This document shows positions 6,564 through 19,832 of a stretch of 19,832 bases of DNA, piece after piece; positions within the stretch are counted from its first letter, which is position 1; the number at the start of each line of letters is the position of its first letter. The stretch covers positions 1-19,832 of the forward strand of contig JAIVZN010000016.1 of the NCBI GenBank assembly GCA_048634875.1, in the 5' to 3' direction. This DNA is from Deltaproteobacteria bacterium (GTDB taxonomy: Bacteria; CG03; SLGR01; JBDRKX01). Both the position numbers and the translations under genes were made by a program. The notes under the pieces are model-generated. The model had not been told where the DNA came from. It searched no databases and was given only the letters and a program-made list of their open reading frames with translations.

Positions 6564-6908
6564 ATGAATGGTATGAAATTAATATTACTGATATTCTTGT
6601 TTGGTTTCTTGGGGTGTACATCAATGCAGAAGAAAAATCTGGCAACTGAAAATGGAGTTATAAGCGCTTTATTTAATATTCCCGAGAGTACTGTAGAATC
6701 CTTAAGAACAAAGGGGCTGGAAGATGAACAGATTTTAAAACTGTTGATTATTTCAACAGCTACTTATTTAACTCTTCCTGAAATTTTAAGTATGATGGAA
6801 GACGGGGTAAGCCTCCATGAAATAGCAACTGACACCGGAATTGAGCAGGAAGTGCTTCAGGAAAGATTGGACAAAATTAAAAAAGATTTAACCCGGATTT
6901 TGCATTAG
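6564..6908 (+). CDS. Small hypothetical lipoprotein (114 aa)
   Basis: The signal peptide has lipobox FLGC. A GGAGG ribosome-binding site precedes the start. The last six codons lie inside the 5' arm of the structured element that follows. Confidence 0.5.
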   Translation: MNGMKLILLIFLFGFLGCTSMQKKNLATENGVISALFNIPESTVESLRTKGLEDEQILKLLIISTATYLTLPEILSMMEDGVSLHEIATDTGIEQEVLQERLDKIKKDLTRILH

Positions 6909-7052
6909 GAATGAAGAACCGAGACGATAAAGATGCTATATAATACACAAACAAAAAAGTGAAGTAATACTCGTAAGTATTGATGAGCTTTTTTGTGACG
7001 TAGAATGTGGCATATTTTTCGTCGAATTCCATTGTCTAATGCAAAATCCGGG
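6892..7052 (+). ncRNA. Candidate structured ncRNA, copy 1. It has a 17-bp closing helix, an inner 9-bp helix and a terminal hairpin. Family unknown; 6S-like architecture is possible.
   Basis: Perfect closing helix cccggattttgcattag/ctaatgcaaaatccggg; inner helix acaaaaaag/cttttttgt; hairpin aatact-cgta-agtatt. All three helices covary with copy 2 at 16077-16240, while the loop sequences (ggaatgaagaaccgag, gtagaa.tg, gaattccattgt) are conserved. Confidence 0.5.
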
Positions 7053-7053
7053 T

Positions 7054-9195
7054 TTAAATACTTATAAGAGTAACACATCCGAGACTTAAAATCCCTATAG
7101 CAAGTAAAACATCTATAATTCCCATTACAGGGACCATAATTATTGCTCCAATGCATGCAAATAAAAATCCTGAAAGTATAAGTGTATATAATTTAAGTAC
7201 TTCATTGCTGCTGTTTGCTAATATCAGATAACTGTTTATTCCTGAATATAGAATACTTCCAAAAAGAAATCCCCCGATAAATGTAAATATAAATGTACAT
7301 ACAAATGAAGGCGGGGAAATCATTATTTCAAATACCGCTGCAAGCAGTATTAAGAATAACACTGACAGTGTTAAGAATATTCTGAAAGCAGAAATAAATA
7401 CAGCAGGATGTTTTTTTTCTAATAATATTATTGAAAATATCAAACCAATTGCTGTACCTGCGAGTAAGAGCGGTATAAACCGGTATATCTGTCCTGTGCC
7501 TGAATGAAATGAAACAGTGGTATTATAGAGAAATACAGCAAAAACGAAACCTGCTGCAGGGAGTGTAATCTTTAATTTAGTTTCAATAGTTTTCTTTGAA
7601 AACAGCTTTAAAAAGATTAAAATAAAAACTATCAATATAACATAAATAAAATTAGAGTTAATACTTTCACTTAGATTTATAAAAAAACCGGATAATACTC
7701 CAAATGTATAGAGTAACTCATGCAAGGCAAACTTGAGTGATGCAGGTTTAGTGTCAGTATTGATGGAGACACAATTAATATCTAAATCTTTCATTACCTG
7801 TTCTTTTGAATTTATCTTGTATTTTATAAGTGATGGCGATATATAATCAGGAATATCCTCTAAAGCATTCAAAAACTCCGAGAGAGCCCTGTGTGAAGTT
7901 GTGAAATTGCGGTTGTGCGAGGCAAGAATCTGTATTCTTTTTCCATATGATTCTAATGTATTTGGAAATGTTTTTTTCAGGGTATTGTACGCAGTTGCAG
8001 AAAGGAACTTGCGATTTCTGCTTAAATTTTCTTCACCTGTTTTAATTGCAATTGAAATCATTGAATTATTTGATAACACTGAACTGGTTTCCTTGAAAAA
8101 TTCATTGGTGTAGTATCTGTTAAAAAAAATATTTGTAGGGTCAGGAAGTGTTATGATTACAATGTCAAAAATTTTTCCTTTTTCCAGTTTTTTTATAAAA
8201 CTTCGCGGGTCTGAATTATTTAATATTCTGAGTTTTTCAGGATATGTAAATTTAGCCGGCAGTATTTTCCAGCCTTTCTCAAAACAATCAGGCACAGGAT
8301 TAGCCCAGTAGACATTTTTTATATTTGGATATCTTAAAACTTCTTCAATTATTTCATTCCAGCCGCCAATTACAAGTATGCTTTCTGCCCATGGGTATTG
8401 TAATAAAGATGTATGAACTATTTCCTGTGTATTGTGTGTATCAGGGTATTTAAAAAGTCTTGAATGGTTTATTGAAAATATGTATGTATCTCTCTTTTTG
8501 TGGATATAAAGTTCTCCATATGAAGTTATATCGTTTGATATAAGGGTTGTTTTAAATTCTCTTACAAATGATTTTATACTGCAGTTGATATCTTTTGGTA
8601 TTGAACTGAATATCAGTAAAATCAATGCGGTTGCAATAATTCCATATTTAAATTTTGGCAGAGTTTCATATGCTGTAAAACAAAGGACAATAAATCCAAG
8701 AGCGGTTATTACTAAAGCAGAATATAAAAGTTCAAAACGCCATAAAACTATAATGTCAATTAAAAAGTAAAGAGCAGAACCAAAAAATAAAAATTTCATG
8801 TTCAATTTTTTTGTAAGTAATTCATTAAAAAATATCACAAAAGACAAAGCAACAGGCAGAAAAATAAAAAGCGGATAAATTGTCAATGCGTACCATGGAA
8901 GTGGACTGGAAAAGGATAATCCTAACACAATCTTTTCCTGCGACATCAATATGCAGAAAAAAGGTGTATACATGGAACATAATAATACTGATAGGTTAAA
9001 CAGCCTGTGTTTTTTAAGAATGCCGGTTATATTTTTATAGAAAAGGAAACCTGCTAAAATTTCTATTCCGAAGATGAAGAAAAATACTGGCAGATGAAAT
9101 AGAGGAAGCTGTGATAATATAAAAAAACCGCGGAATATTAATATCAATTCCGCGGCTAAAAATGCTCCGAACAATATCAGTGCGGAGATTGTCAT
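7054..9195 (-). CDS. Polytopic membrane protein (713 aa) with a central spermidine-synthase-like (aminopropyltransferase-fold) domain flanked by N- and C-terminal multi-TM regions
   Basis: About 6 TM helices lie at each end. The central block DIVIITLPDPTNIFFNRYYTNEFF matches the SpeE DVIISDCTDPxGP...LFTxEFY block. The SAM-binding GGGDGG motif is degenerate (ILVIGGWNEI). Confidence 0.55.
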   Translation of the reverse strand: MTISALILFGAFLAAELILIFRGFFILSQLPLFHLPVFFFIFGIEILAGFLFYKNITGILKKHRLFNLSVLLCSMYTPFFCILMSQEKIVLGLSFSSPLPWYALTIYPLFIFLPVALSFVIFFNELLTKKLNMKFLFFGSALYFLIDIIVLWRFELLYSALVITALGFIVLCFTAYETLPKFKYGIIATALILLIFSSIPKDINCSIKSFVREFKTTLISNDITSYGELYIHKKRDTYIFSINHSRLFKYPDTHNTQEIVHTSLLQYPWAESILVIGGWNEIIEEVLRYPNIKNVYWANPVPDCFEKGWKILPAKFTYPEKLRILNNSDPRSFIKKLEKGKIFDIVIITLPDPTNIFFNRYYTNEFFKETSSVLSNNSMISIAIKTGEENLSRNRKFLSATAYNTLKKTFPNTLESYGKRIQILASHNRNFTTSHRALSEFLNALEDIPDYISPSLIKYKINSKEQVMKDLDINCVSINTDTKPASLKFALHELLYTFGVLSGFFINLSESINSNFIYVILIVFILIFLKLFSKKTIETKLKITLPAAGFVFAVFLYNTTVSFHSGTGQIYRFIPLLLAGTAIGLIFSIILLEKKHPAVFISAFRIFLTLSVLFLILLAAVFEIMISPPSFVCTFIFTFIGGFLFGSILYSGINSYLILANSSNEVLKLYTLILSGFLFACIGAIIMVPVMGIIDVLLAIGILSLGCVTLISI

Positions 9196-15730: not shown

Positions 15731-16078
15731 ATGAAGAAGTATTTAACTATAAGTGAGGTTTCAAATATTACGAATATTCCTTCTTATACGCTTAGATACT
15801 GGGAATCTGAGTTCAGTCTGCTTCGGCCAATGAAGAGGGAAAGCGGACAGAGGCGGTATACTCAGAATGATGTTCATACTATTGAAAAAATAAAAAAACT
15901 CCTTTATGAAGAAAAATACAGTATTGCTGGTGCTAAGAAGCAGATAACAAAAGAGAAAAAGCTATACACTAACCAACTTGAAATACCTTTAACTACTTCA
16001 AGTGCTGCAATCAAAATTTTAAAAAAAACAAAAGAAGATCTTTTTAAAATTAAAGAGCAGTTAAACAAAGAGGTTTAA
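15731..16078 (+). CDS. MerR-family transcriptional regulator
   Basis: N-terminal MerR-type helix-turn-helix (LTISEVSNITNIPSYTLRYWE) followed by a coiled-coil tail. The adjacency to an HU/IHF gene resembles the ihfA-merR-like gene pair found in many bacteria. Confidence 0.7.
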   Translation: MKKYLTISEVSNITNIPSYTLRYWESEFSLLRPMKRESGQRRYTQNDVHTIEKIKKLLYEEKYSIAGAKKQITKEKKLYTNQLEIPLTTSSAAIKILKKTKEDLFKIKEQLNKEV

Positions 16079-16240
16079 CCCATTTGTTGCAATAGGAATG
16101 AAGAACCGAGATGAAAAAGACAAGTATTTATACAAGCCAAAAAGTGAAAAGCATACTGAGTAGTATGGGCAAGCTTTTTGGCGCCGTAGAAATGCTTGGA
16201 TTTTTTGTAGAATTCCATTGTCTATTGCAATAAATGGGTT
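16077..16240 (+). ncRNA. Candidate structured ncRNA, copy 2 (same family as 6892-7052)
   Basis: Closing helix aacccatttgttgcaatag/ctattgcaataaatgggtt (19 bp, one G.U pair on the + strand only); inner helix gccaaaaag/ctttttggc; hairpin catact-gagt-agtatg. The loop blocks are identical or near-identical to copy 1. Confidence 0.5.
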
Positions 16241-16246
16241 TAATAT

Positions 16247-16385: not shown

Positions 16386-16462
16386 CGGGATGTAGCGCAG
16401 TCTGGCAGCGCACTCGTCTGGGGGGCGAGTGGTCGCCGGTTCAAATCCGGCCATCCCGACCA
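16386..16462 (+). tRNA. tRNA-Pro (anticodon GGG), CCA encoded
   Basis: Acceptor cgggatg/catcccg, D-stem gcgc/gcgc, anticodon stem ctcgt/gcgag with loop CTGGGGG (G37), T-arm gccgg-TTCAAAT-ccggc, discriminator A. Confidence 0.9.
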
Positions 16463-16464
16463 AA

Positions 16465-16523
16465 TGTAAACGGAAAGTAGAAATGCACCACTCGCGGAAA
16501 ATAAAAGTGCACCAAATGAAGGA
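16465..16523. repeat. IS21 terminal inverted repeat (istB-proximal end)
   Basis: tgtaaacggaaagtagaaatgcaccactcgcggaaaataaaagtgcaccaaatgaagga matches the reverse complement of 18873-18932, with ~6 differences and 1 indel. Confidence 0.75.
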
Positions 16524-16531
16524 GTAATGGT

Positions 16532-17269
16532 TTATTCCTCCTTTTCTTTAATTCTAAAAGATTTACCGCTCAAATTAAACACCTTTGAATGATGTAATAG
16601 ACGGTCAAGCATTGCTACCGTCATTATTTCATCTCCCATCATTTCCGCCCAATCATCGAATTTCTTATTCGATGTGATAATGACTGATGATTTCTCATAC
16701 AATTCACTAATCAAATTAAAAAACAGATTTGCCTCCTTTCTTTCAATCGGCGTATAGCCGATTTCATCTATTACTGTAAGATCTGACTTTAATATACGAT
16801 TTATTCTAAATCCGGCACTTCTCTGAATGTCTGCCATCTTAAGGAGCTTGATCAAGTTATTTACCCTCTCAAAACAGACAGTATACCCAGCTTGCACAGC
16901 TTTCATGCCGATAGCTATTGAAAGATGAGTTTTCCCTAATCCGGGAGGTCCAAAAAACAGTATGTTTTCATGATTATCCAGCCAGGTGAAGTCCATAAGA
17001 TGGGATGTGTCGGATTTCGTAATACCTTTTACCCGTGAAAACATGAAATCTTCAAATTGTTTTTCTACAGGGAAATGAGCTCCGACTAGATTTCTCCTGA
17101 GTCTTCTTTCCGTCCTGAAATCCACCTCAGTTTTCAATATGTTGCCTAAGAAACTCAAATATGATATTTTCTTCTCTTCAGCTTCCGATATCTCGCTATC
17201 GAGATCGTTAGCTATGCCTTTAAGTTTCAAACTCTCAAGCAAGTGTACCATTTGCTGATATTTTTTCAT
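16532..17269 (-). CDS. istB: IS21-family helper ATPase IstB
   Basis: Walker A GPPGLGKTHL and Walker B LTVIDEIGY; 245 aa, typical IstB length. Confidence 0.9.
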   Translation of the reverse strand: MKKYQQMVHLLESLKLKGIANDLDSEISEAEEKKISYLSFLGNILKTEVDFRTERRLRRNLVGAHFPVEKQFEDFMFSRVKGITKSDTSHLMDFTWLDNHENILFFGPPGLGKTHLSIAIGMKAVQAGYTVCFERVNNLIKLLKMADIQRSAGFRINRILKSDLTVIDEIGYTPIERKEANLFFNLISELYEKSSVIITSNKKFDDWAEMMGDEIMTVAMLDRLLHHSKVFNLSGKSFRIKEKEE

Positions 17270-18816
17270 GACCGTGCCTCCGTTACCAGTTTGTGATAAT
17301 CTTCGATATTCCGGGTTTCTACCTGAAAAACCGGGTTTTTCTCTGAGATAGTCTTTAATTCCGGATTATTGCCGAGTTTGCAGTCCGGTATATCCAGTTC
17401 GGCTTCCTGCTTGCAATACAGGTATGTGTCATACAGATTTGCCATGCTATATGTCCGGTTATCAAGACATAGCTTGAGCGCTGGCTTTAGATATTCTGTA
17501 TTTATGCCGCTGGAGAACTTCTTCATCGCATCGCTGTACTGATCACGGAAGTATCGTGGGTACGTCTGATAATTCTTATCTATAAACACCTTCCATAATT
17601 CTAATGAAAACATACATTGCAATTTCTCTTTCAATTCTCGCTGCTGGGTTTCTTTGCGATAACTGCGGGTATGATTTACTACTTTTGTGCCGGGAATTGG
17701 GCATATCTCGTATTCCTGTATTTTCTCACTGGTGCGGATATCATAGATAAACAACATCTCGTTTGTCCTGTATATCTCTACTTCCCGGTTGCGGTAATCT
17801 TCCGGCACAGGATACTTGCATGAATTTACCGAGATAGTACCTAATGTGTCGACCTTGCGTTTTTCCCGTCCCACAGAGATATTGCTGCGGTATATCGAAT
17901 TCCTTAAAGGTCTCAGATGCTTTTTCTCCTCAGCAAACATTTCTCTGGGTATCCGTCGGGTAGCAAGCGATATCTTGCCATTGGCCCGGCGGCTGAGCCA
18001 TCTAAGACCCCGATCACAAGTTTCATCTATATCTTCAAAATCCCGGAGCCGGAGAAAGTTTCTTTTTATGAACTTGATCAAGTTCTCTATCTTGCCTTTA
18101 GTCTCGGGATCGCTCTTCCTGCATACATACATTTTCAGATCCATTTCTTCTCTGAAATGCCGGAAATCTTTTGTATATATTATGTCGCCATTGTTTTCTT
18201 TTAATACCATCACAGAATCCTGATCTATTACCAGTTCCTCCGGCATACCTCCCATATACTCAAAGCAATCCAGAAGATGGTTTATCAGATCCAGCGCAGT
18301 GAAATGTTCTGTTTGAAATGAGCAGTATTTGTAGCGGCTTGCGGATAATACTGCTCCAAATATATACAGTTTCAAGCCACTTCGTGTAAGATATTCACCA
18401 AAATCTATCTGCATCTGCTTGCCATAGGGCAATTCTTCAACAGGATAATATTTCCGGGGAGTTTCATTGAATATCAGTTGTCCTGTATCTGTCAGATAGT
18501 TGATGTAATTCCGGAAACATCTTTCTGTTCCAGGAAGATCCCCGCATTTCTCTTCAAGATAATCATATACTGCGGCTTTCTCAAGTTTCTGGAAATCATT
18601 TTCTCGGTATACATCTAAGATATTTGTCTTGAAGGGCTCGAATATCTTGGTTCGATTCCTCACAGTTTCTATATATCGGAGATATTGCTTCTCCGTCATA
18701 TCGAAATATTTTATTACCGTCCTCTTGTTTAAACCGGTTGTGCGGATAATGTCCGATTTGCTGAAACCACGCTTTTTGAAGTTCTGTATTCGCTGATACA
18801 TAATTTTGTTAACCAT
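17266..18816 (-). CDS. istA: IS21-family transposase IstA
   Basis: N-terminal helix-turn-helix followed by a DDE catalytic core; 516 aa; precedes and overlaps istB. Confidence 0.9.
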   Translation of the reverse strand: MVNKIMYQRIQNFKKRGFSKSDIIRTTGLNKRTVIKYFDMTEKQYLRYIETVRNRTKIFEPFKTNILDVYRENDFQKLEKAAVYDYLEEKCGDLPGTERCFRNYINYLTDTGQLIFNETPRKYYPVEELPYGKQMQIDFGEYLTRSGLKLYIFGAVLSASRYKYCSFQTEHFTALDLINHLLDCFEYMGGMPEELVIDQDSVMVLKENNGDIIYTKDFRHFREEMDLKMYVCRKSDPETKGKIENLIKFIKRNFLRLRDFEDIDETCDRGLRWLSRRANGKISLATRRIPREMFAEEKKHLRPLRNSIYRSNISVGREKRKVDTLGTISVNSCKYPVPEDYRNREVEIYRTNEMLFIYDIRTSEKIQEYEICPIPGTKVVNHTRSYRKETQQRELKEKLQCMFSLELWKVFIDKNYQTYPRYFRDQYSDAMKKFSSGINTEYLKPALKLCLDNRTYSMANLYDTYLYCKQEAELDIPDCKLGNNPELKTISEKNPVFQVETRNIEDYHKLVTEARS

Positions 18817-18872
18817 ATTTTAAGTACGCTCCTTATGATATTGTATTTCCATATCATTGAAGTGTACTTTTT

Positions 18873-18932
18873 TCCTTCAAAGTGGTGCACTTTTATTTTC
18901 CGCGGTAGGTGCATTTCTGTTTTCCGTTTACA
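18873..18932. repeat. IS21 terminal inverted repeat (istA-proximal end)
   Basis: Reverse complement of the 16465-16523 repeat; ends ...tttccgtttaca. Confidence 0.75.
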
Positions 18933-19011
18933 AGGAGCTACGACAGCACCAGCACCAGGAGCTATATCTATATGGGCTAATGGAGGAAGAGGGTGGACAA
19001 AACCAAATAAT

Positions 19012-19832
19012 ATGAATAAACAAACACGAGGAGTCAATAGTGCTAACCAGGAAAAGGCGGATACAAGTGAGGACGGGTATCAACAGGCATTGGCAGCAGA
19101 AACGGAATATGTAGATGCAATAAATGCAGCAATAATGGCAGAGATGGAAAAGATGGAAAAAGGATATGCAGCAATAAGGGCATCGCAAAAGGCAGCGTGG
19201 GAAGAGAGGGAAAAAGGATATGCAGCAATAAGGGCATCGCAAAAGGCAGCGTGGGAAGAGAGGGAAAAAGGATATGCAGCAAGAAGAGCAGGTAAGCCGG
19301 TGGGTAGACAGGAATTGGCAAAAGTAAAAAAAGCATATAAACAGATATGGGCAACGTATAAACAGGAATTGGCAAAAATAGGGGAAGCATATAAACAGAT
19401 ATGGGCAACGTTTAAACAGGAAAGAAAAGAAATAAGGGAAGAGTATAAAGAGAAAAGAGAAGAATTAAGGAAAGAGTATAAAGAGAAACAAACAGGATGG
19501 GGAAAACCAAAGAGAAACTATAAACATAAAAAGGCAGATACAGATGTGAAAGGGTATAGACAGAAATGGTCAGAATTAAGGGAAGAGTATAAAGAGGAAA
19601 GAAAAGAAATAAGGGAAGAGTATAAAGATGAAAGAAAAGAATTAAGAAAAGAGTATAAAGAGAAAAGAGGAGAATTAAGGGAAAAGTATAAACAAAAAGA
19701 AATATCAAGGGAAGAGTATAAAGATGAAAGAAAAGAATTAAGAAAAGAGTATAAAGAGGAAAGAAAAGAATTAAGAAAAGAGTATAAAGAGGAAAGAAAA
19801 GAAATAAGGGAAGAGTATAAAGAGAAAAGAAA
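19012..19832 (+). CDS. 3'-partial gene for an extremely charged (E/K/R/Y-rich) tandem-repeat protein. It contains 18-aa repeats (GYAAIRASQKAAWEEREK x2-3; QELAKxxxAYKQIWATxKQ x2) and then at least 11 copies of an 11-aa repeat ([ED][EK]RKE[IL]R[EK]EYK). It is absent from the ORF track because it has no in-window stop.
   Basis: I translated the + strand by hand from the ATG at 19012 (MNKQTRGVNSANQEK...) and found no stop through 19832. The strand is purine-rich. The - strand ORFs over this region are short, low-complexity and broken. Confidence 0.55.
   Translation, partial: MNKQTRGVNSANQEKADTSEDGYQQALAAETEYVDAINAAIMAEMEKMEKGYAAIRASQKAAWEEREKGYAAIRASQKAAWEEREKGYAARRAGKPVGRQELAKVKKAYKQIWATYKQELAKIGEAYKQIWATFKQERKEIREEYKEKREELRKEYKEKQTGWGKPKRNYKHKKADTDVKGYRQKWSELREEYKEERKEIREEYKDERKELRKEYKEKRGELREKYKQKEISREEYKDERKELRKEYKEERKELRKEYKEERKEIREEYKEKR
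19162..19832 (+). repeat. Tandem DNA repeats inside the CDS: 2 exact 54-nt units (19162-19269) plus a partial third; 2 near-identical 54-nt units (19309-19416); then a 33-nt period array (19417-19832)
   Basis: Direct inspection: ggatatgcagcaataagggcatcgcaaaaggcagcgtgggaagagagggaaaaa occurs twice exactly. The unit gaaagaaaagaa(t/a)taag(g/a)gaagagtataaaga(g/t) recurs with a 33-nt period. Confidence 0.85.

Follow-up and report, generated by a model that had tools for sequence, protein, structure and literature searches.

Coiled coils are recognised with 11/3 and 18/5 periodicities, which bracket the straight-helix value of 3.63, and the CCDC90-like/DUF1640 family is found in prokaryotes and organelles (PMC4786415). 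ER/K single alpha helices are rich in E, K and R, have no hydrophobic seam and carry many E-K/R pairs 3 or 4 residues apart (PMC5347031), and a long charged helix needs no more than a basic stripe for nanomolar, non-sequence-specific DNA binding, as in the KER region of CAF-1 (PMC10335832). Here we analyzed a repeat gene that lies at the right end of contig JAIVZN010000016.1 from a Deltaproteobacteria bacterium, the window being the whole contig of 19,832 nucleotides (nt). A first-pass annotation, made from the sequence alone, had proposed an unannotated gene for an E/K/R-rich protein of single-alpha-helix or LEA-like type. The explanation that we find best overall, and in which we place about even confidence, is that the locus is a truncated coding fragment of a modular helical repeat protein that would form a parallel, hendecad-type coiled-coil rod.

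An open frame of repeats at the contig end

Translation of the + strand from 19012 to 19830 yielded 273 stop-free codons, in agreement with the first-pass annotation, and the same frame stays open from 18820 on (337 codons). Over positions 18934-19832 no stop occurs in this frame, versus 18 and 27 in the other two + frames. The local base composition (A 51%, G 28%, T 13%, C 8%) gives a stop probability of 0.070 per codon, or about 1 per 14 codons, and at that composition P(open) is 4e-10 for 299 codons and still ~1e-4 with the repeats collapsed to ~125 independent codons. Tandem Repeats Finder returned periods of 54, 54, 33, 66, 129 and 162 nt, every one a multiple of 3, and only one repeat unit differs in length, being shorter by 3 nt with the frame kept. 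At the protein level, apolar positions vary conservatively between units (I/L, V/I, Y/F), a hydrophobic periodicity of 3.6-3.65 is common to unrelated repeat families and to the unique segment, and recurring peptide motifs carry synonymous differences (GGG/GGA in GW.KP, AGG/AGA for Arg).

One condition that the earlier annotation had named as fatal to its proposal was a non-coding purine-rich satellite, whose open frame would be a by-product of low T. Consistent with a satellite, A+G makes up 79% of the + strand in the repeat region, third codon positions in 18934-19832 are 85% A/G and 1.5% C, long open reading frames (ORFs) run along the opposite strand, no homologs were retrieved, and the gene caller behind the protein collection skipped the frame, a point that also counts against a coding gene as such. 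A satellite is hard to reconcile with the single open + frame and the 3-nt indel described above, or with four unrelated repeat families that share one frame with unique sequence while all their periods are multiples of 3, and its product would not be expected to combine a coherent 3.6-3.67 amphipathic periodicity with recurring, synonymously varied motifs. We regard it as extremely improbable. The codons of the repeat gene are purine-biased (Ala GCA 86%, Ile ATA 100% and Leu TTR 100%, versus 48%, 47% and 48% in neighbouring genes), probably because a few founder units were amplified, and the minus-strand ORFs, which encode L/F/P-rich low-complexity strings, are shadow frames of the kind that a T-poor coding strand usually produces.

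These data indicated that the last ~900 bases of the contig belong to a real but incomplete protein-coding gene, present as an internal fragment only. By exact look-up the fragment was not among the source gene calls or in the protein collection, in which its neighbours are present, and it gave no self-match in protein searches, which is consistent with the earlier description of the gene as unannotated. Because the window is the entire 19,832-bp contig, the missing stop codon corresponds to an assembly break inside the tandem array. An exact 75-nt DNA search for an extension of the gene in GTDB species genomes gave no match, and a promoter and terminator scan returned nothing above chance.

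The modules of the fragment are summarized in Table 1, with residues numbered from M19012 unless the 299-residue query, which starts at 18934, is named. Residues 1-50 comprise a hydrophilic stretch with KADTSEDGYQQ, followed by an acidic, Ala-rich helix. The two GYAAIRASQKAAWEEREK copies of 18-residue family 1 come from two identical 54-nt units and are followed by a partial third copy, so the two 18-residue repeats reported earlier were recovered. A second 18-residue family, unmentioned in the earlier annotation, follows the pattern QELAK[VI][KG][KE]AYKQIWAT[YF]K; its two units are identical at 48/54 nt, their V/I and Y/F substitutions lie on the apolar face, and together they make an aromatic, basic amphipathic helix (mean hydrophobicity 0.30, moment 0.50, net charge +5 over 36 residues).

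The 11-residue units form two blocks, the second of which consists of 6 eleven-residue units and one 10-residue unit (QKEISREEYK), with partial units at both ends. Positions 6 (L/I) and 10 (Y) do not vary across the 11-mers. At least 11 copies of [ED][EK]RKE[IL]R[EK]EYK had been claimed; the strict pattern matched 5 units, and a loose count gave 9 full and 2 partial units over both blocks. The description of the tandem units as exact holds for the identical 54-nt pair and fails for the 33-nt units, which are pairwise identical at 24-33/33 nt (73-100%), with only two identical pairs. Charged residues account for 0.76 of the main 11-mer array, in keeping with the E/K/R-rich composition first described, and its net charge is +4 over 90 residues. 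The linkers are strongly basic (e.g., KPKRNYKHKK, net charge +7 per 18 residues), and linker 2 is a second copy of a GW.KP...KADT...GY.Q module. In the preferred explanation the gene would be specific to its lineage and would evolve through duplication of units. No second copy of the locus turned up in any collection searched; variability in repeat number, and with it in length, is plausible, given the exact repeats and an assembly that broke within the array.

Charge geometry and predicted helices

AlphaFold2, run on the single sequence, predicted four helices (residues 19-92, 99-160, 176-227 and 233-272; predicted local distance difference test, pLDDT, 70-98) of 74, 62, 52 and 40 residues, with irregularly spaced breaks that coincide with GKPVGR (119-124 in the numbering of the 299-residue query), TGWGKPKRNYKHKKA and the 10-residue unit. 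The pLDDT fell below 50 at linker 2 and was 95-98 in 11-mer block 2, with a break at the 10-residue unit, where the loss of one residue turns the seam by ~100 degrees. In the PDB, Foldseek returned nothing below E = 1, just generic helical hairpins (ribosome recycling factor, CdvA). In the 18-mer half the hydrophobic period is 3.6, and in the 11-mer half it is 3.65; these values correspond to 18/5 and 11/3. When the consensus EERKELREEYK was placed on an 11/3 wheel, the positions fell in the order E1 E5 E9 E2 / L6 Y10 / R3 R7 K11 K4 / E8, which sets an apolar seam of two residues between an acidic and a basic stripe. The array thus has the 11-residue periodicity with fixed apolar positions that marks hendecads (33-nt period, L/I6 and Y10, period 3.65).

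The earlier proposal of an ER/K single alpha helix would make the protein monomeric, held by intrahelical salt bridges and acting as a rigid spacer or spring between domains outside the window. The high charged fraction and near-zero net charge of the array speak for such a helix, as do the long, isolated AlphaFold2 helices of very high pLDDT. We counted charge pairs in the array of residues 184-273 against shuffles. Opposite-charge pairs at i+4 numbered 3+5, versus 12.2+12.3 expected (8 versus ~24.5 in all); at i+3 there were 14+3, versus 12.6+12.5 expected, the 3 being pairs of K/R then E; and like-charge pairs at i+4 numbered 46, versus 24.4 +/- 3.7 expected. An E4K4 control behaved in the opposite way, with 84 opposite-charge and 0 like-charge pairs. 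The dense opposite-charge i+3/i+4 network that defines single alpha helices was therefore not found in the array, and the invariant L/I6 and Y10, adjacent on the 11/3 wheel, form a seam of the kind that such helices lack by definition (PMC5347031). With opposite-charge i/i+4 pairs depleted, like-charge pairs enriched and an apolar seam present, the single alpha helix was rejected, and we consider it very unlikely. The charge and apolar layout suggests a coiled-coil-type repeat protein rather than a single alpha helix, and the case illustrates that E/K/R-rich composition by itself cannot identify a single alpha helix.

In the preferred explanation, the polypeptide would be alpha-helical almost throughout, with long helices built from 18-residue units (18/5 = 3.60 per turn) and 11-residue units (11/3 = 3.67) and separated by short G(W)xKP breaks. 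Each 11-mer would span three turns, so that L/I6 and Y10 form a narrow, nearly straight apolar seam, with the acidic stripe (1, 5, 9, 2) on one side and the basic stripe (3, 7, 11, 4) on the other. Because like charges stack within one helix, the helix would not be self-stabilised in the manner of a single alpha helix; a lone helix would be electrostatically frustrated, and an antiparallel hairpin would be too, since like flanks would meet. In parallel copies side by side, the acidic flank of one helix would meet the basic flank of the next, following the g-e' logic of parallel coiled coils. Parallel homo-oligomeric rods are favoured because the complementary stripes would be satisfied only in parallel alignment, not alone or antiparallel. 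We hold with moderate confidence, from this arrangement of residues, that the protein would self-associate in parallel as a little-supercoiled, homo-oligomeric hendecad coiled-coil rod; a cellular role as a structural or fibrous protein is suggested weakly.

Several points weigh against this explanation. Only 2 of 11 positions are apolar, one of them Tyr, which makes a thin core compared with the 3-4 apolar positions (a, d, e, h) of a hendecad core. The AlphaFold2 model, derived from a single sequence, has a predicted template modelling score of 0.34, at which its tertiary arrangement is untrustworthy, and AlphaFold2 calls most E/K-rich sequences helical.

On its own wheel, family 2 shows a six-position W/Y/F/I/L/V apolar face with Lys at the borders and looks like a surface-binding amphipathic helix. 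This face keeps a lipid-binding reading alive for the family 2 segment: the protein would be a lipid- or membrane-surface amphipathic protein (apolipoprotein, perilipin or LEA-like) whose helices lie flat on a membrane or lipid droplet, with the aromatic 18-mers inserted and the 11-mers forming a charged coat. Besides the moment and positive charge of family 2, this reading can draw on the sole solved-structure matches of the fragment, which are apolipoprotein A-I (apoA-I) chains (phmmer E = 0.0044-0.018, best 19.8 bits, ~140 residues aligned), on the Pro/Gly punctuation of the helices, as in apoA-I, and on the 11/3 periodicity, which is that of lipid-bound 11-mer helices. The 11-mer arrays are, however, far too hydrophilic (mean hydrophobicity -0.4, apolar 2/11), and their seam is bordered by acidic residues along one flank and by basic residues along the opposite flank, where class A helices have base at both interfaces. 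The profiles PF01442, ApoLp-III and LEA_4 were unmatched at E <= 1. Hydrophilins combine Gly above 6% with high hydrophilicity; the arrays are as hydrophilic as this requires, but Gly, at 12/273 residues (4.4%), falls short. We regard lipid binding as unlikely for the protein as a whole.

The basic stripe (R3, R7, K11, K4) raises the further alternative of a helix that binds DNA, RNA or another polyanion in the manner of the CAF-1 KER. The stripe runs straight along the full array, the linkers are strongly basic, and the nanomolar DNA binding of the KER has no larger requirement. The helix also carries an acidic stripe that is just as continuous, though, and the net charge of the array is just +4 over 90 residues; moreover, no DNA-binding family was matched in Pfam or NCBIfam, and the genomic context holds no hint of such a role. 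Polyanion binding as the function of the array appears very improbable. A bolder variant, which we consider distinctly unlikely, is that the three-stripe 11-mer represents an undescribed bacterial "charge-zipper" rod, in which salt bridges between parallel helices would provide most of the cohesion along an untwisted 11/3 axis, with the aromatic and basic 18-mers as its anchors on a membrane or polyanion.

If the gene is functional, the hendecad rod would be a sequence-orphan addition to the charged 11-residue-repeat helical proteins of prokaryotes, and its unusually clean acid / seam / base layout could offer a natural test case for the way in which charge stripes, rather than a hydrophobic core, direct parallel helix association. 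No long-standing question is made testable by the repeat gene.

The IS21 junction and the rest of the window

The repeat gene is abutted by the istA-proximal end of an insertion sequence (IS) of the IS21 family. The NF033546 transpos_IS21 profile scored 171.9 bits against a cutoff of 160, and the terminal inverted repeats (16465-16514 and 18883-18932) are 50 nt long and 90% complementary. Independent IS copies on four other contigs (L007-L010) share the same termini, TGTAAACGG...CCGTTTACA; these contigs confirmed the IS termini only, and none holds the missing 5' half of the repeat gene. No target-site duplication was seen, the flanks being CCAAA and AGGAG. The neighbouring element is an IS21-family member, every tested feature being present except the target-site duplication. 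Its terminus at 18932 upholds the distance of 79 nt to the ATG at 19012 given by the first-pass annotation.

That annotation had also taken 19012 as the gene start. Coding signals nevertheless reach upstream of it to the IS21 end. The in-frame remnant GATTAPAPGAISIWANGGRGWTKPNN consists of a Pro/Ala-rich linker and then the first GW.KP helix-breaking motif. In 18934-19011, C occupies 0/26 third codon positions, versus 15/52 at positions 1 and 2 (Fisher p = 0.0016), a bias that the gene body shares. GWTKP and KADTSEDGYQQ flank the ATG and recur as GWGKP...KADTDVKGYRQ at 19497-19560; GW.KP, seen again at residue 188 of the 299-residue query, has a chance of 7e-5 of occurring in frame, and local alignment of the upstream with the internal linker scored 48, versus 22.9 +/- 4.7 for shuffles. 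Neither an in-frame ATG, GTG or TTG between 18934 and 19011 nor a Shine-Dalgarno sequence before ATG 19012 was found. Given the in-frame second copy of the GW.KP...KADT...GY.Q linker and the complete lack of C at the 26 third positions up to the IS21 end, the gene is most likely 5'-truncated by IS21, a judgement that we hold strongly. In this explanation the 5' end would have been cut off where the IS21 copy abuts at 18932/18933 and the 3' end lost to the assembly break, and an intact, IS-free allele would read a signal peptide or other N-terminus and then TTAPAPGAISIWANGGRGWTKP. The distinctly unlikely charge-zipper variant would add that, with a signal peptide or lipobox as the lost N-terminus ahead of the TTAPAPGA linker, the product would be an orphan surface or periplasmic fibre with its length set by repeat number.

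Two sets of observations tell against truncation at this site. First, many genes in the window also have no Shine-Dalgarno sequence, and ATG 19012 could be the true start. Second, the tRNA-Pro / IS21 / repeat-gene junction is unsupported on its right side: contig L007, which carries the same IS copy at 100% identity, spans the tRNA side and stops exactly at 18932. On the left, IS21 begins 2 nt past tRNA-Pro (region 16386-16465). In the related-strain contigs L004 and L005 (94-97% identical), which stop near tRNA-Pro, the tRNA is followed by an unrelated membrane-protein gene (region 11030-11130 of L004), and neither the IS nor the repeat gene is present. Synteny with the window ends exactly at the IS, which, like the missing target-site duplication, speaks for truncation. 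The right junction therefore reflects a rearrangement mediated by the IS, heterogeneity among strains, or a join that the assembly made across IS copies. The gene abuts an IS21 end that most likely removed or displaced its 5' part and that may or may not belong to the copy beside tRNA-Pro, and it may be a dead remnant after the IS21 event. The locus illustrates that gene callers can miss purine-rich repeat genes at contig ends and that short-read assemblies of metagenome-derived genomes break at IS21 junctions and tandem arrays.

Within the IS21 end, an ATG at 18835 (and a GTG at ~18862) lies in frame and could open a hybrid ORF into the repeat gene (18835-19011, +), which would add a hydrophobic N-terminus, MILYFHIIEVYFFPSKWCTFIF.... 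A promoter-like site upstream of it (18776-18804) is weak and no better than chance.

Table 1. Features of the repeat gene, the adjoining IS21 element and other ORFs of the window
Feature	Position	Strand	Description and evidence
In-frame coding remnant GATTAPAPGAISIWANGGRGWTKPNN	18934..19011	+	26 stop-free codons, C avoidance, GW.KP motif
Non-repetitive N-terminal part, first in-frame ATG	19012..19161 (residues 1-50)	+	Translation
18-residue family 1	19162..19293 (residues 51-86, partial 87-94)	+	GYAAIRASQKAAWEEREK x2 and partial GYAARRAG
Linker 1	19291..19308 (residues 94-99)	+	GKPVGR, helix break (AlphaFold2)
18-residue family 2	19309..19416 (residues 100-135)	+	QELAKVKKAYKQIWATYK / QELAKIGEAYKQIWATFK
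11-residue block 1	19417..19482 (residues 136-157)	+	QERKEIREEYK, EKREELRKEYK
Linker 2	19483..19560 (residues 158-183)	+	EKQTGWGKPKRNYKHKKADTDVKGYR, 26 residues, Gly/Pro-containing
11-residue block 2	19561..19832 (residues 184-273)	+	Reaches contig end
IS21-family insertion sequence	16465..18932	-	Inverted repeats, profile matches, independent copies
istA	17269-18816	-	rve and NF033546 transpos_IS21 matches
istB	16535-17269	-	PF01695, E = 5e-73
ORF, 424 residues	22-1296	+	No NCBIfam or Pfam match
ORF, 618 residues	3186-5042	+	No NCBIfam or Pfam match
ORF, 114 residues	6564-6908	+	No NCBIfam match
Single ORF, 490 residues	5049-6521	+	Fusion; L004 counterpart with Memo and AMMECR1 domains
Polytopic membrane protein, 713 residues	7057-9195	-	Spermidine-synthase-like PF01564, E = 4e-7; NF002956 well below cutoff

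Elsewhere in the window, the first ORF (22-1296) ends ...ATLKY and possibly encodes the C-terminal portion of an outer-membrane protein running off the contig start. A long-hairpin element of ~175 nt is present in two copies, at 16072-16246 (+) and 6884-7062 (+), which are ~76% identical. Each copy folds as one imperfect hairpin (-69.5 and -72.1 kcal/mol; z-scores -9.9 and -11.4), with compensatory changes between copies in the outer stem and invariant internal-loop sequences, TAGGAATGAAGAACCGAGA and GAATTCCATTGTCTA. No Rfam family matched the element, the search giving just sub-threshold plant microRNA hairpin models, and its loop motif is absent from IMG/VR. The copy beside tRNA-Gly is conserved in related strains (L001, L004-L006). 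Two candidate identities for it are a miniature inverted-repeat element and a structured small RNA.

Homology searches and comparison with known repeat families

A word-indexed search of 5.8 billion proteins gave no match to the whole fragment or to its non-repetitive 162 residues. Full HMMER against 1.84 billion representatives gave 30 matches with E < 1e-3, all to the repeat-rich C-terminal part (query residue 128 onward), and no match in this search covered query residues 1-127. The best, P0001 (E = 6e-11), has PVMTDYKELLK repeats and looks like unrelated repeats matching each other. Most of the retrieved matches are charged 11-mer repeat proteins (xELRxExKxEI), mostly with hydrophobic anchor segments. 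When ten of them were compared with Pfam, seven fitted CCDC90-like/DUF1640, along with the Apolipoprotein profile below threshold, and three fitted nothing; P0003 and P0021 reached the CCDC90-like/DUF1640 gathering score, and the five others fell below it. Back-translated peptide scans of GTDB genomes and JGI metagenomes gave no match, a degenerate DNA pattern for the 14-residue core EYK.ERKE[IL]R.EYK was absent from JGI metagenomes and IMG/VR, and tblastn found no match in phages and plasmids. No Pfam or NCBIfam model was reached at threshold for the repeat protein, and the sub-threshold matches (Muted, Metal_resist and DUF725) were discarded as effects of composition. The protein is thus an orphan, for which none of the protein and DNA collections searched held a homolog. 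Its architecture is of a known kind and places it alongside the hendecad and amphipathic 11-mer repeat proteins. Of the first-pass likeness to LEA proteins and apolipoproteins, the 11-residue amphipathic periodicity was borne out and family membership was not. The notion that such repeats are rare in bacteria was not supported: the weak library matches are themselves charged 11-mer repeat proteins of the CCDC90-like/DUF1640 type, a prokaryotic type as well (PMC4786415), and charged 11-mer repeats are thus no rarity among prokaryotes.

Group 3 LEA proteins (LEA_4) resemble the fragment in being extremely hydrophilic, in having tandem repeats of 11 residues and in the amphipathic helix that is predicted for them. 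Apart from the absent LEA_4 match, the fragment differs in a unit consensus that is unrelated and has no A/T/G-rich positions, and in the Tyr that is invariant in every unit. ER/K single alpha helices, such as the myosin lever extensions and the CAF-1 KER, resemble the array in its E+K+R content (>70%) and long predicted helices, but differ from it in that its charge network is depleted and a hydrophobic seam is present.

The exchangeable apolipoproteins (apoA-I, A-IV and E; PF01442) likewise have amphipathic helices with 11-residue-based periodicity and Pro/Gly punctuation. Unlike them, the fragment finds no match to PF01442, the profile that defines the family; its predicted helices are 74, 62, 52 and 40 residues long rather than 22-mers, with a far narrower apolar face, and its stripes run acid / seam / base instead of the class-A base / seam / base.

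The prokaryotic stalk proteins of the CCDC90-like/DUF1640 type (PF07798) share with the fragment tandem 11-mers, a common core of E-[LI]-R-x-E-[YM]-K and predicted long hendecad helices, and BLASTP aligned it with P0003 at 37% identity over 172 residues. Proteins of this type give the best matches in the library, and the library-wide E-values (6e-7 and weaker) arise from repeats on repeats. At position 3 the fragment has Arg where the family has Ile or Leu, which gives the family a three-residue core, and PF07798 itself was unmatched at E <= 1. A head domain and a transmembrane anchor, as in the family, are not visible in the fragment, both of whose termini are missing. The kinship would be one of analogy, or at most of very remote homology, and CCDC90-like/DUF1640 appears to be the closest architectural class to this repeat protein.

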